Source: Eledone cirrhosa (Eukaryota). From it: 64,000 nucleotides of DNA. Positions 7,630-22,441 of the stretch are shown here, in pieces. The translations under genes and the position numbers were made by a program. The notes under the pieces were generated by a model that was not told where the DNA came from, did not search any database, and saw only the letters and a list, made by a program, of their open reading frames with translations. Position 1 is the first letter of the stretch. Each line of letters opens with the position of its first letter. The DNA lies in contig OZ024754.1 of NCBI GenBank assembly GCA_964016885.1, positions 29,450,001 to 29,514,000 on the forward strand. Direction: 5' to 3'.

Positions 7630-9044
7630 AACGAAGGAGTTGTGGTAAGGAACCAGATGGACCATAACGTACCAGAGTACTCGATACTTAGGGTAGTAGA
7701 GTGGGTAATAGGAAAAGGTATGTCCTCGACGGCAGAGCTCAAGCCATTTCGACGGCTATTTCTGGACTAAATTAGAATTTTTAGCCTGGTAAATAAATAG
7801 CCGAACTTTTCAAGAGGTACTTCCTTATATGGGAAGATTGTAGTTGTCAAAAGGATTGGTCAAAATTTCTTATAAACACAATTAAGTCTATCATGGCAGT
7901 GGGTGCGAGGTGGGGATGGCTGAACTTGCCTGTAGAGCAATGAGGGAGTGGGTGGGGCCGGTCAAGCGTTGAAAGGGAAATCTATGCAGCAAATTCTAAG
8001 GATTGTGTATGAAAGTAGGCGAAAAGGGTTCTGGAGAAAATAGAGGAGGGATGTTATAGAAAAGTTAAATCAATTGAGATTTGGAAACAATAAAAAAAAT
8101 AAGAGAAAGATATATAAAAATATAAAATTGGTTAGTAAGAAGTGATAAAAAGCAAAGACTGTGGAGTCTAAAACAGCTTCTATATTTATGTTGGTGGTGC
8201 TTTTTCGGCCACTGCTAAGTTGAGAATAAAAGATACTAAATAGGAATTTTTGATGTTATAGAATTGTGTAGTAAAATGTAATACAAAATCTCTGGGGTCT
8301 AACACAGCTGCTATGATTAGTTAGTATTGCATTTTCGGCCAATGCTATCTTTAATTTACTGGCGTGGGGGTACTGAGGCTACAGAGGCCCGATGAGCTGC
8401 CTCGGGATTGGCGAAAGGGGAAAAAAGAAAGAGGAAGAAGATCGGCAGTGGAAGGAAGTGATAGGGGGAGACAGAGGGAAGAATGGAAACTGAGAGGAAA
8501 AGAAAAGAGGTACATCTACCTATGTCAGCTGGGGTTTCCCCTATCTTATTCGGCAAGTGGGATGTTTCATGCCATTGTCTACCCATCCGGGTCGTTAGGG
8601 GGTTTGAGAGCGGGGTAATTCCTACGCAATCGGTGTTTGCATGCCGTTACCAGTTCGTCTTTTTTGTTTAGGAGTTGGTCCTTCGTAAACAGCATTTGTT
8701 ATGTTTGCTCCGAGCATAAGTTACACGGACGGCGTCCTCCCGTGTAGGAGTTAGCTCTGGTCATTAAGCTCCAAGTAAGATTGTATGTTATGTTATTATC
8801 TTGAAGGTCCCAGATGTGGCCCGAAAATTCCACATCTGTGCCATCCGCACCCACTACCATGATAGACTTAATTGTGTTTACAAGAAATGTTGACTAATCC
8901 TCTTGACAACTACAATCTTCCCATATAAGGAAGTACCCCTTGAAAAGTTCGGCTATTTATTTACCAGGCTAAAAATTCTAATTTAGTCCAGAAATAGCCG
9001 TCGAAACGGCTTAAGCTCTGCCGTCGAGGACATACCTTTTCCTA
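7630..9044. mobile_element. (TA)n-embedded foldback element, PLE pseudo-LTR-like
   Basis: About 200 bp inverted arms (7709-7910 vs 8843-9044) with an extra ~80 bp tail on the left arm; (TA)n on both sides; related copies at 22243-22441 and 62040-62175. Confidence 0.75.
7738..7816 (-). ncRNA. putative hammerhead ribozyme, U3-A8 core variant
   Basis: CTC-TTGAAAA-[CGGCTATTT...AAATAGCCG stem II]-GAAA-TGGC-TT-GAG; the mirror copy at 8937-9015 (+) has a mismatched stem I. Confidence 0.45.
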
Positions 9045-10309
9045 TATATATATATATATATATATATATATATATATATATATATAATTACGTATGTATG
9101 TATATATATTCATATGAACATTCTATTCCAATATCTGTAAACATCGGCACACATGCAAACCAATGTGTAGCATATATATATATATATATATATATATATA
9201 TATATATATATATATATATATATATATATATATATATATATATAGATAGATAGATATATATTCATTTATTTATAAAGCGAGAGAGAGTGAGAAGGGGTGT
9301 TTATGTGAGGTGCTTGAGCAGATATATTCTTTTATAAATGATAACGTGATGTCAAATGTAAAATTAATCTTATTAATAATTGTTAAAATTAATATAGATT
9401 TGCAATAAAGAAATTGCTGTTATATTTACCAATATTTAAATCTATCATAGCATTAATTCGATCATTTTTTTAAAGATATCTGTTTAAGTTTTGAATTATT
9501 TATTCCACATAATCTTAAAGTCGTTCTTTATCTTTCCATTTCACGTTACGATAATTTTATATCATCACTTCAAGGACATTTTGTTCCTCCTGGAGTTTCT
9601 TCGAAATGTTTATTCCGTGATCAAAGCATCAAACCAACCAATAAAACTATGAAAGATTCTGTTCATAGAAAAAAAATGATTTCTTTTCTTTGATTTCTTT
9701 GCTTGTTTAAAAGAACTGTCTATGTATATCTCTGCGTGTCATGAGAATCTACTAAGAGTTGGTGTCAAGAAGAGCATCCGACCGCAAAAAAAAAAAAAAA
9801 AAAATTCAAAAGTTATTTCCAACAGATATATATAGCCTTTTATGAGGATCGCGAATTTAAATTTTCTTTTAGTACGGAGAATGACCTCATAATGTTGCTA
9901 CTTCTGCAGTCGCTCTTTAACAGAATATTCTTTCATCTGAAAAGATTTCTCGTTCTTTTTTTAATTTTTTTTAATTTAAACTGTAACATTTACTTTTCGT
10001 TTTATCTGTATCGATATTCTAATCATTGTTTTTACGCAAATAAACTTTTGTAGACGATGTTTTGCGTTGTCTATCAAATATACACATGTAATTGAACGAC
10101 GAGATTAAATCCTGGAATACTCTTAACGTTCTTATCTAACGATCTTTAGAACTAGATTTAGTCACATCTGTTGATTTAATTATGTAATTTCATTTGTTTA
10201 TCCATGTTGTGCAGTCTTTCAATAAATCAATTTATGGTTTTCGTTCGTTGTTGAACACTTCCTATTGCATAAGTTAAAATAACGATGATGATGATGATGA
10301 TAATAATAA

Positions 10310-10635
10310 TAATTGTTTCTACTATTGGCACAAGGCCAGCAATTACCCAGTACATTACTGGTACTTTATTTTATTGACCCCGTAAGGATGAAAGGCAAAG
10401 TTAACCTCGGTGGGATGATAATAATAATGGTTTCTTATATAGGCACAAGGCCAGCAATTTTGGGGGAGGAGAGAGTCGATTAAATCGATTACAGTGCATC
10501 ACTGGTATTTTATCTATCGACCCCGTTTGGATAAAAGACAAAGTTAACCTCAGTGGTATTTGAACTTAAAACGTAAAGGATCGTAACTCTCTGCTACAAA
10601 GCATGTTGTACGATGCTTCACCTATACTACCAATC
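10310..10635 (-). mobile_element. two SINE copies (partial OK-like, plus a longer older subfamily)
   Basis: Reverse-complement core and tail; the second copy retains a gtcgattaaatcgat insert. Confidence 0.8.
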
Positions 10636-10657
10636 CAGTAATTGAATTAGATGATTG

Positions 10658-11135
10658 TAAAATCTTATGTGACTCCGCAATACAGTTAAATAAAGTATTA
10701 GAACATAATAAGCCAGACGTAACTGTGGGGGACAAAAACTATGTGGGTCTATAATGAACCACTCATACCAATATGACTTAAGAAATGTGAAGAGGAAAAG
10801 GAGAAAAATAACAATCCATTAAGGTATGAGATTGCTCAGTTGTGATAATTGAAGATGGCGAAAGACAGGCCAGTAGTGATAGGTGCCATGGGAATAGAAA
10901 CCCATAAATTTGATTATTGGATGAAGGAAATGGAAATTGAGTGCAACCCTATTGCATTAATCGAGAAAGCTTGTATTCGGGAACAGCGCAAATTGTTTGG
11001 AACACAGAAAATTATGGGCAGATGATGAAGACATATTTAGTGTTATCTATGACCAGTGATCGTGGTCAGCTATCACAAAATATCGGGATTTTTCAACACG
11101 ATATCTGAGAAAGAAAACCCTATAATAATAATATT
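10658..11135 (+). pseudogene. R4/Dong-like (RLE-type) non-LTR retrotransposon 3' fragment
   Basis: Translates KILCDSAIQLNKVLEHNKPDV...PVVIGAMG, matching KILWD..IQTD..RPD..VPVVIGALG; ends in (TAA)n. Confidence 0.7.
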
Positions 11136-11139
11136 AATA

Positions 11140-11530
11140 ATAATTGTTTCTACGTTAGGCACAAGGCCAGAAATTCCCCCAGTGCATTACTGGTACTTTA
11201 TTTTATCGACCCCGTAAGGGATGAAAGGCAAAGTTAACCTCGGCGGGATTTGAACTCAGAATGGCAAAGGCCGTAACTCTATGCGTCAAAGCATGGCGTC
11301 CGACCCTCTCCCGATACTGCCAATCCAACACCCTTATAATATTAATAATAATTGTTTCTACTTTTGGCACAAGGCCATCAATTACCCAGTACATTACTGG
11401 TACTTTATTTTATCGACCCCGTAAGGATGAAAGGCAAAGTTAACCTCGGCGGGATTTGAACTCAGACCGCAAAGGGACGTAACTATGCTGGAAAGCATGG
11501 CGTCCGACGCTCTACCGATACTGCCAATCC
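11140..11530 (-). mobile_element. two tandem OK-like SINEs
   Basis: Two full reverse-complement copies, each followed by the same flank aacacccttataatattaataataat. Confidence 0.9.
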
Positions 11531-21085: not shown

Positions 21086-21094
21086 ATATATATG

Positions 21095-21303
21095 TAGGGT
21101 GTTTGAAAAACATTGATATCATTTGAGATGTAAATATCCAGAAACTACCAAGTCTGGGACAACAAGATGGACAGGCTTAATGTTGGGCAAGGTAAGAGTT
21201 ATTGTTCAAAACTTGTCAACATTATAACACTAATTCACGATATATATTTTAATATGACAACCTTGGGAACGGGCCATGATATCAATGTTTTTAAAACACC
21301 CTG
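21095..21303. mobile_element. Tc1/mariner-type MITE
   Basis: TIRs agggtgtttgaaaaacattgatatcat / atgatatcaatgtttttaaaacaccct. Confidence 0.7.
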
Positions 21304-21560
21304 TGTATATATATATATATGTGTATATATATATATATATATATATATATATATATATATATATATATATATATGTATATATATATATATATATATATAT
21401 ATATATATGTATATACTGTATATATATATATATATATATATATATATATATATATATATATATATATAGATAGATAGATATAGATATATGTATATATATA
21501 TATATATATATATATATATATATATATATATATATATATATATATATATATATATATATA

Positions 21561-22026
21561 TAAAAGAATAGAGGTGTAACACACAAGTTATTATATATTG
21601 GTAAACGGAATAGAAAATGCTGACAAATTGTTCACAGTTGAAAAATGGTTTAATTAGGAATAAAAGAGTATTAGTGATTGTATGGGTTAGTATTCAGTTG
21701 TGGTTTTAAGTTTTTAAGTTTTTACCGGTTGCGCATTTCTAAATGCTTTTCAAAAATAATTTTGAGATAGAGTGTCCGTGCTGTTTGCTCTGATCAGAGC
21801 AAACAGCACGGACACTCTATCTCAAAATTATTTTTGAAAAGCATTTAGAAATGCGCAACCGGTAAAAACTTAAAAACTTAAAACCACAACTGAATACTAA
21901 CCCATACAATCACTAATACTCTTTTATTCCTAATTAAACCATTTTTCAACTGTGAACAATTTGTCAGCATTTTCTATTCCGTTTACCAATATATAATAAC
22001 TTGTGTGTTACACCTCTATTCTTTTA
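21561..22026. repeat. perfect 466 bp palindrome embedded in (TA)n
   Basis: Centre tga|tca at 21793/21794; 233 bp arms, no spacer. Confidence 0.95.
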
Positions 22027-22242
22027 TATATATATATATATATATATATATATATATATATATATATATATATATATATATATATATATATATGTATGTA
22101 TATATATATATGTATGTATATATATATATGTATGTATATGTATATATATATATATATATATGTATATATATATATATATATATATATATGTATATATATA
22201 TATATATATATATATATGTATATATATATATATATATATATA

Positions 22243-22441
22243 TAACGAAGGAAATGTGGTAAGGAACCAGGTGGACCATAACGCACCAAAGTACTCAATA
22301 CTTAGGGTAGTAGAGTGGGTAATAGGAACGAGTAGGACCCCGACGGCTGAGCTCAAGCCGTCTCGACGGCTAATTTAGTCCAGAATTAGCCGTCGAAACG
22401 GCTTGAGCTCAGCCGTCGGGGTCGGTCCTACCCGTTCCTAT
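22243..22441. mobile_element. miniature foldback copy of the 7630 element
   Basis: Same left tail aacgaagga...gtgggtaatagga; folds back around atttagtccag; ends ttcc(TA)n. Confidence 0.8.

Follow-up and report, generated by a model that had tools for sequence, protein, structure and literature searches.

In a 64,000-nt window of the Eledone cirrhosa genome (assembly GCA_964016885.1, contig OZ024754.1), we find asymmetric fold-backs that, judged from their sequence, are truncated copies of a very abundant Hydra-clade Penelope-like element (PLE) and not MITEs. Both outer ends of the family are fixed and lie in (TA)n, an insertion pairs a tailed arm with a tailless one, the inner ends vary, and fillers occur at the junctions. 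We consider it probable (roughly 80%) that these copies arise by twice-primed insertion, in which both (TA)n strands are nicked and two cDNAs, each started at its own fixed RNA site with 80 nt between the sites, are fused head to head. The element's endonuclease would nick opposite strands of the (TA)n run and each 3′ TA end would pair with the UAU at one RNA start site, so that the tailed cDNA would begin at base 1 and the tailless cDNA at base 81. End joining with 0–4 nt of microhomology or filler would then fuse the two cDNAs wherever each had stopped, and the palindrome would be the stretch copied by both. The inverted and tailed architecture has already been published and is ordinary for PLEs (Craig et al. 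2021; Frangieh et al. 2024). New are the family, a tail of twice the usual length, the near-1:1 pairing of the ends and a pile-up of inner ends.

Copies in the window and identity of the element

Copy A (7630–9042) is a two-armed fold-back. Its unpaired tail (7630–7707, minus strand) spans the stretch between the two fixed ends, the putative reverse transcription start sites, which lie 80 nt apart, each at a TAT triplet common to the (TA)n target; in full-length relatives the counterpart of the tail continues into the 5′ region ahead of the ORF. The paired part of the tailed arm (7708–7907, minus), which is the element 3′ end and pLTR, matches 8846–9045 with 96% identity over 200 bp (E = 3e-89) across a 938-bp spacer. 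This spacer consists of the 3′ UTR (7908–8578, minus), which has a degenerate internal repeat and is colinear with relatives at 82–92%, followed by a C-terminal fragment of the GIY-YIG endonuclease (8579–8827, minus) with CNLC and CKH motifs, one in-frame stop at 8699–8701 and a 5′ truncation at about 8826. A junction filler without assigned strand (8827–8845), which includes a 9-nt reverse complement of 8811–8819 and a short stretch that extends the inverted arm, leads into the tailless inverted arm (8846–9042, plus), which terminates at ttcc|(TA)n. In copy B (22244–22438, minus), a tailed arm reaching base ~132 meets, with a 3-nt overlap, a tailless inverted arm that goes deeper into the element, to base ~143; its arms are 92% identical over 52 bp with an 8-bp spacer. 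Both copies start with aacgaagg after (TA)n and end with ttcc before (TA)n. Copy C (62041–62172, plus in the element sense) consists of one tailed arm, about 130 bp long, for which we found no inverted partner.

A first-pass annotation of the window had proposed that copies A and B have the same unpaired tail of ~80 bp and the same tailless end in (TA)n, with different fold points. Arm alignment confirms the common ends, the spacers of 938 and 8 bp agree with the different folds, and the coordinates given for the copies were correct to within 1–3 bp. It had also invoked the established PLE pattern of an inverted, truncated pLTR; the inversion stands, but it is not limited to the pLTR, given that arms extend up to 1,767 bp. 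At the protein level the copy A spacer matches the C-terminal end of the RT-EN ORF in a relative (72% over 101 aa, E = 9e-39), which bears out the PLE identity itself.

Full-length relatives encode RT, with GIY-YIG at the C-terminus, in one ORF of ~740 aa with LRWR, HSDKT, QFDI, LYRDDGL, CxCx5C, a GIY-YIG-like core, CxxC and CxH, and the frame is open over 790 aa in one of them (L062). Features of EN+ PLEs are present both in the protein (a PLE-type RT and a GIY-YIG endonuclease in one ORF) and in the insertions (5′ truncation, partial tandem pLTR, inverted truncated copy and one-sided tail). A Pfam search of both proteins returned 0 families; the top homolog carries PF01541. Naiad, with its N-terminal GIY-YIG, CxC and DKA, was rejected because the endonuclease is C-terminal and the motif is DKT, and there is no N-terminal EN or CxC as in Naiad. 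Helitron/Helentron and DIRS elements, considered from the asymmetry, were dropped once RT and GIY-YIG appeared.

The Hydra clade comprises C-terminal EN+ PLEs and includes Hydra-1_Obim and Penelope-13_HM (Craig et al. 2021, PMC8557442). By eye, and with the Hydra reference proteins taken from the published text, the ORF of the relatives follows the Hydra rows of Fig. S7 of that paper and not those of Penelope, Neptune or Nematis. As far as the available text describes the clade, the Eledone cirrhosa family has in common with it a single ORF with RT then GIY-YIG, DKT (here HSDKT), the CxCx5C linker (CNCPDRSTC), CxxC and CxH (CNLC and CKH), no CCHH inside GIY-YIG, (TA)n targeting, a hammerhead-like motif near the 3′ end, and an inverted 5′-truncated copy with a one-sided tail (Fig. 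2; Penelope-13_HM). It differs in having RWR instead of RWK, a column at which homologs have either, a tail of 80 nt versus 30–40, a unit of ~3.2 kb versus generally <3 kb, and a U3-A8 hammerhead core (C3-A8 in some copies) versus C3-G8 in all listed Hydra cores. The hammerhead region listed for Hydra-1_oBim is unlike that of the Eledone cirrhosa family, which points to a separate family (PMC8557442).

Paired ends and variable junctions

A 26-mer of the tail has 3,323 exact matches in the genome and the core motif of the arm has 35,639, while the reversed controls of both have 0, so the fold-back family is not a product of chance. TATATAT precedes 2,489 of the 3,323 tail matches, and TA repeats follow the inverted arm in 57 of 65 two-armed copies. 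Within the subfamily of copy B, tailless ends abutting TA (6,092) and tailed read-through arms (5,734) occur in nearly equal numbers. When 30 tailless-anchored copies of this subfamily were read by eye, 29 had a tailed partner and the remaining one ran off the locus; none was tailless on both sides. Among 90 tail-anchored copies, 25 had no called inverted arm; some of these are long, some were missed and some are truly single like copy C. At least two copies (L092 and L124) are tailed on both sides; we count these and the 25 against two-site priming. Most copies are ~200 bp long and abundant.

Inner ends vary widely. Described as triples of tailed end, tailless end and overlap, with ends called by local alignment to within a few bases, the junctions fall into 60 distinct types in 65 copies, and in one subfamily read by eye 30 copies have 29. 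Arm lengths span about 10 bp to 1,767 bp and are loosely coupled (Spearman rho 0.27 across the 65 copies). The tailless arm is the longer one in 26 copies and the tailed arm in 13, and the two end within 2 nt of each other in 26; in L029, L032 and L039 it is the tailless arm that is long or full-length. Ten of the 65, with tailed arms <79 nt, have no palindrome. That either arm can be the longer one, together with these 10 copies, weighs towards separate priming of two cDNAs and away from snap-back or fixed TIRs.

A MITE or other non-autonomous DNA transposon that has fixed TIRs plus an additional tail, and of which the short copies would be amplified internal-deletion derivatives, is a very remote prospect. 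Copy B alone does look like a copy A whose interior was deleted at a 3-nt microhomology, and the size and abundance of most copies and the recurrence of some junctions would also suit it. Yet the interior is a PLE RT-EN ORF that continues from one arm only, the tail is internal in tandem copies, and neither the arm lengths nor the junctions are constant. Nor is there a fixed target-site duplication: among 67 short copies, a set that does not include copy A, none had a non-microsatellite direct repeat of ≥12 bp in its 300-bp flanks. For the family overall, a TIR transposon is refuted by the lack of fixed-length TIRs, of a single junction and of a fixed duplication, and by the parent RT-EN element. 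The first-pass annotation had reasoned likewise that the inversion is made anew at each insertion; the variable junctions support this, and neither a single common fold junction nor symmetric TIRs with transposase-type duplications, which it had named as contrary outcomes, were found.

Copy A is flanked by a locus-specific direct repeat of ~200 bp, of which the left copy (7198–7403, plus) consists of a TA run, a unique 60 bp and a second TA run and is 85% identical to 9043–9237. The unique part has just these two matches genome-wide, and the repeat, with its right copy at 9043–9261 (plus), is probably a long target-site duplication.

Self-priming has been proposed for palindromic junctions in rotifer PLEs (PMC3846280). 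Under such a snap-back, one singly primed cDNA would fold back and copy part of itself, and later deletions would account for asymmetric cases. The same variants in both arms, the 26 of 65 copies whose arm ends lie no more than 2 nt apart, and the short templated reverse complement in the junction of copy A speak for it. However, where the tailless arm exceeds the tailed one (26/65) or the arms do not overlap (10/65), neither arm could have templated the other, and snap-back leaves unexplained why the inverted arm stops exactly at the second TAT site, abutting (TA)n (57/65). We regard it as improbable.

Arm identity was higher within than between copies, a comparison the first-pass annotation had proposed (0.89 versus 0.81 for 37 copies; 0.96 versus 0.90 for 13 long copies), as expected of arms copied from the same template. 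Both arms of copy A carry a 13-nt variant absent from all other of 215 loci. In just 12/37 and 5/13 copies, however, does an arm find its best or joint-best match in its own partner, so one single RNA molecule as template is not proven; private alleles are mostly confined to one arm (27, versus 3 in both arms).

Some identical junctions recur, and the spread of junctions is non-uniform, concentrated near base 139. One junction is found in six copies carrying five different subfamily variants, which fits repeated formation. Two copies (L209 and L211) have the same junction and subfamily and different flanks; copying of whole units may lie behind some such cases. Later central deletions may add to junction variety, and post-insertion central deletion of palindromes could give short or non-overlapping arms.

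Inner-end pile-up and a candidate RNA 5′ end

Among the 111 arms that reach base 134, stops at bases 137, 138 and 139 number 16, 18 and 20, and those at bases 140–142 fall to 4, 4 and 6; 15 arms continue. In copy A, base 139 (position 7768) is the +1 A of an initiator-like TTAGTCC within a putative promoter (7764–7799, minus), with a TATA-like TATTTATT at 7792–7799 (−31). The two motifs together may form the promoter of the element, as far as can be read from their arrangement; the TATA-like motif is absent from a second subfamily. Base ~139 is likely to be the RNA 5′ end. Two copies (L187 and L196) have long runs of A/T here. In 9 of 20 cases base 139 is followed by a non-templated C, which is indistinguishable from partner-arm sequence and was not used as evidence.

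We lean slightly towards most cDNAs starting in the transcript's 5′ pLTR copy and running off its 5′ end at base 139, which would make the ~200-bp form, as in copy B, the commonest. In full-length copies the upstream pLTR (31 to 588 nt) often extends beyond base 139, so not every template begins there, and long forms such as copy A would owe their length to a 3′ copy as the priming site or to longer transcripts.

The pile-up lies in a hammerhead-like motif. Copy A holds one of type I with a U3-A8 core (7721–7821, minus; predicted cut between 7727 and 7728) and a second in the tailless arm (8932–9032, plus). A minimum free energy fold of the copy A motif gives a three-way junction, and in an alignment 93% of cells are paired, three of the stem II pairs being compensated. 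Fourteen of 18 sequences have the U3-A8 core, and in 4 the core is unpaired. These predictions support a type I hammerhead fold, and U3-A8 is a known PLE hammerhead variant (PMC4209133). The motif was identified by hand; an Rfam scan of 7100–9400 gave microsatellite-driven weak matches only. Arms ending at the predicted cut (L093, L126, L209 and L211) are too few for a claim of enrichment.

TTAG is also paired within a small hairpin that sits in hammerhead loop II. Two-site priming could then be right with the pile-up at bases 135–144 reflecting instead a stall of the RT at this hairpin or at a protein-bound site, which we think possible if somewhat doubtful. The pile-up site lies within the 3′ strand of the hairpin, a similar pairing is readable in the second subfamily, which lacks the TATA-like box, and long copies pass the site freely. 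On the other hand, the edge coincides with the +1 A and drops sharply beyond it, the hairpin is short and A/U-rich, and the A/T runs suggest template run-off. Taken as a whole, the combination of near-obligate twin priming from two different fixed sites (tailed and tailless, ~1:1 across thousands of copies) with most cDNAs being strong-stop-like run-offs from a start 139 nt in has, in our view, even odds. If true, the family would be a record, on the scale of a genome, of how PLEs form their inverted ends, and one mechanism, taking the place of self-priming, would account for tail and inversion as well as for the ~200-bp copies that resemble MITEs.

Relation to known systems

In L1 twin priming, the element RNA is primed by two 3′ ends of the target and the resulting cDNAs are fused head to head; the internal site at which the second primer lands varies, and there is no overlap between the cDNAs. 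In the Eledone cirrhosa family, by contrast, both start sites appear fixed and the cDNAs would usually overlap, giving the palindrome.

An in vitro precedent is PAc (Poseidon_Ac of Anolis carolinensis), which cuts and extends both strands and has two internal RNA start sites, one at either limit of the tail (Frangieh et al. 2024, PMC11167929). An AT-rich target, a predicted dimer and uncleaved RNA as template are also in common. PAc belongs to a different clade, however, and its start sites are within the ORF and are said to lack homology to the cut DNA, whereas the putative ones of the Eledone cirrhosa family lie 5′ of the ATG, both with TAT in common with the target. The account available for PAc does not derive the inverted structure from the two start sites (PMC11167929). 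Penelope elements of Drosophila virilis and Adineta vaga likewise have inverted terminal repeats that vary from copy to copy, a tail and transcription start within the pLTR, but their tails are shorter (31–34 bp) and they have short target-site duplications, unlike the Eledone cirrhosa family (PMC2377424, PMC3846280). The rotifer paper ascribes inversions to self-priming on an antisense template (PMC3846280). In the accessible part of Craig et al., the origin of PLE tandem and inverted ends is still named an open question (PMC8557442).

In our literature search, with incomplete coverage of subscription journals, no paper traced PLE inversions back to two start sites or to a strong-stop product. 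The accessible text of an Octopus vulgaris repeat paper gives counts only and has no mention of Hydra, and that of a retrozyme preprint mentions Hydra for a coral only.

With short copies numbering in the tens of thousands, the family lends countable support to the two-start-site, two-strand model, which has so far rested on one in vitro system, and an exact RNA 5′ end is predicted. Copies of ~200 bp could easily be annotated as MITEs.

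Copies in the window and family identity

Copy A (window positions 7630-9042) starts with a 78-bp unpaired stretch, followed by two arms (7708-7907 and 8846-9045) of 96% identity around a 938-bp spacer. Copy B (22244-22438) shares its outer ends with copy A and has a spacer of 8 bp, as the first-pass annotation had described in noting shared ends and a differing fold, and copy C (62041-62172) is a single tailed arm, that is, one carrying the unpaired tail. The Penelope-like element (PLE) origin proposed there also holds: a minus-strand frame in the copy A spacer aligns at 72% over 101 aa (E 9e-39) with the C-terminal end of the long ORF of genomic relatives, which carries a reverse transcriptase (RT) and a GIY-YIG-like core. 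Many of the best 40 of 5,904 candidates, scored in a search of the 3.0-Gb genome with copy A, run beyond its junction into endonuclease and RT frames. Near-complete ORFs were recovered from forty longer loci, for example the 790-aa frame of locus L062 (motifs LRWR, HSDKT, QFDI, LY(R/H)DDGL, CxCx5C, GIY-YIG-like core without CCHH, CxxC, CxH). According to Craig et al. (PMC8557442) this motif set characterizes the Hydra clade, except that the clade has RWK where we find RWR, and by eye the sequence tracks the Hydra rows of their alignment. A Pfam search of the ORF proteins gave no match; homologs number 1,125 at about 40% identity, most of them without names. Exact genome matches, which are lower bounds, amount to at least 3,323 for a tail 26-mer (at least 2,489 after TATATAT); an arm-core pattern has at least 35,639, and the reversed control of each has 0.

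The arms are predicted to fold as a type I hammerhead, a putative ribozyme. Across 18 chosen sequences 93% of cells are paired, and the three compensated pairs in stem II all come from one subfamily, so they are not independent events. The U3-A8 core, present in 14 of the 18, is a variant reported from Schistosoma PLEs (PMC4209133). A subfamily with a C3-A8 mismatch (L051, L058, L059, L062, L067, L068) possibly has an inactive ribozyme in a lineage still with long open frames. The hammerhead region listed for Hydra-1_oBim in PMC8557442 is unlike that of the present family, which on sequence grounds is separate.

Fold points and arm identity

Each insertion most likely creates its inversion afresh, as the first-pass annotation had suggested. 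The sample came from contig C1, where 90 tail matches out of the first 100 listed gave 92 copies, or 90 after removal of two duplicates; an inverted (tailless) arm was called in 65, and the other 25 include single-armed copies as well as long ones and ones where the call was missed. Among these 65 copies, 60 different junction triples occur. The inverted arm is the further-reaching of the two in 26, falls short of the tailed arm in 13 and roughly matches it in 26; TA repeats come after it in 57, and three of the remaining copies run on into tail sequence. In 10 of 65 the tailed arm stops before the end of the tail and there is therefore no palindrome, which argues against a snap-back origin of the inverted arm. 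In long loci, arm length ranges from 120 to 1,767 bp and identity from 84 to 98%, and the tailless arm is the long or full-length one in L029, L032 and L039. Of 30 tailless ends sampled independently from copy B's subfamily, 29 have a tailed partner and one runs off the locus; 29 junctions were distinct by eye, and several hold fillers, long A/T runs among them. Across the genome, the count for this subfamily is 6,092 tailless ends abutting TA versus 5,734 tailed read-through arms.

Arm identity, the comparison proposed in the first-pass annotation, is higher within than between copies (0.89 versus 0.81 in 37 copies; 0.96 versus 0.90 in 13 long copies), and one variant common to both copy A arms is absent from all others among 215 loci. 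Only in 12 of 37 and 5 of 13 copies does an arm match its partner best, and private alleles occur 27 times in one arm versus 3 times in both. The arms of a copy thus go back to one subfamily or source and later diverged separately. This comparison alone does not separate PLEs from MITEs. The variable junctions and the PLE-type ORF do, and the copies are not MITEs with fixed terminal inverted repeats.

One junction (bases 138 and 136, counted from window 7630 into the element, i.e. from its 3' end; 1-nt overlap) is found in six copies that represent five subfamily variants, which is what repeated formation at a hot spot would produce. Some copies may have been amplified by unit copying, since L209 and L211 have junction and subfamily in common but differ in their flanks. 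A full-length insertion occurs three times on contig C28 (L010/L031, L015/L021/L033, L024/L032) with the same junction and 94-95% identity, probably by segmental duplication.

Fixed ends and a possible RNA start

A distance of 80 nt separates the two fixed ends, and each falls at a TAT common to element and target. In full-length copies the tail leads into a 5' region of about 90 nt ahead of the ATG, and therefore both ends are internal RNA positions. A small hairpin lies directly 3' of the tailed site in 7/7 copies printed, and a matching one at the tailless site is the minimum-free-energy fold in 3/7. The two ends parallel the pair of internal start sites shown in vitro for the PLE-type protein PAc, which also cuts and extends both DNA strands (PMC11167929). 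The tail is longer than the 30-40 bp given in PMC8557442.

Arm ends pile up at bases 135-144 (36/90 tailed, 30/65 inverted), which only 8 tailed and 8 inverted arms pass; base-by-base, stops peak at 137-139 and fall at 140. On the sense strand, base 139 corresponds to the A in TTAGTCC; TATTTATT lies at -31 of it in copy A's subfamily and is missing from a second subfamily. We lean slightly towards run-off, with cDNAs that would end at an RNA 5' end at base 139; the rival is an RT stall at a hairpin in loop II. Upstream pseudo-LTRs (pLTRs) in full-length copies often extend past base 139, so longer templates exist. In Drosophila virilis Penelope the start site lies within the pLTR (PMC2377424).

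The fold-back layout is already published for PLEs (PMC8557442, PMC3846280 and PMC2377424), and a literature search of limited coverage found no paper stating that PLE inversions join two cDNAs primed at two fixed sites. Added here are an abundant new Hydra family, its 80-nt tail, near-1:1 pairing of both end types, a proposed RNA start that lends itself to testing, and the non-palindromic copies, which speak against snap-back.

Target sites and surroundings

A search around 67 short copies yielded no direct repeats. Copy A is flanked on both sides by a direct repeat of ~200 bp whose unique part is found only there; this single case is consistent with one nick in each of two TA runs. The left TA run of that repeat holds a younger 200-bp element (7405-7606), of which 40 copies were scored among 2,035 candidates, at 97-99% identity or more. 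Other PLE families (further Hydra-like ORFs, Neptune- or Poseidon-like) adjoin family copies in TA-rich regions, as at L043, L053, L062 (7416-8879), L047 (8015-9901), L002 and L008.

A near-perfect 424-bp palindrome of non-family sequence (59009-59431; 99.5%, no spacer) abuts a (TA)n run and is either a fold-back of recent origin or an artefact of the assembly. At 58171-58699 lies a fold-back with ~90-bp inner arms that derive from a different element and sit between TA runs; its outer flanks are inverted too, and related sequence occurs at 36956-37167. A tandem array (48897-56555) has units of 2.0-2.7 kb at 96-98% identity, each with (TTC)n runs and a ~190-bp SINE-like repeat. A ~190-bp SINE-like repeat, presumably an octopus SINE, has about 30 matches in the window (for example 47921-48106, 47538-48106 and 11128-11556), some as inverted or tandem pairs.
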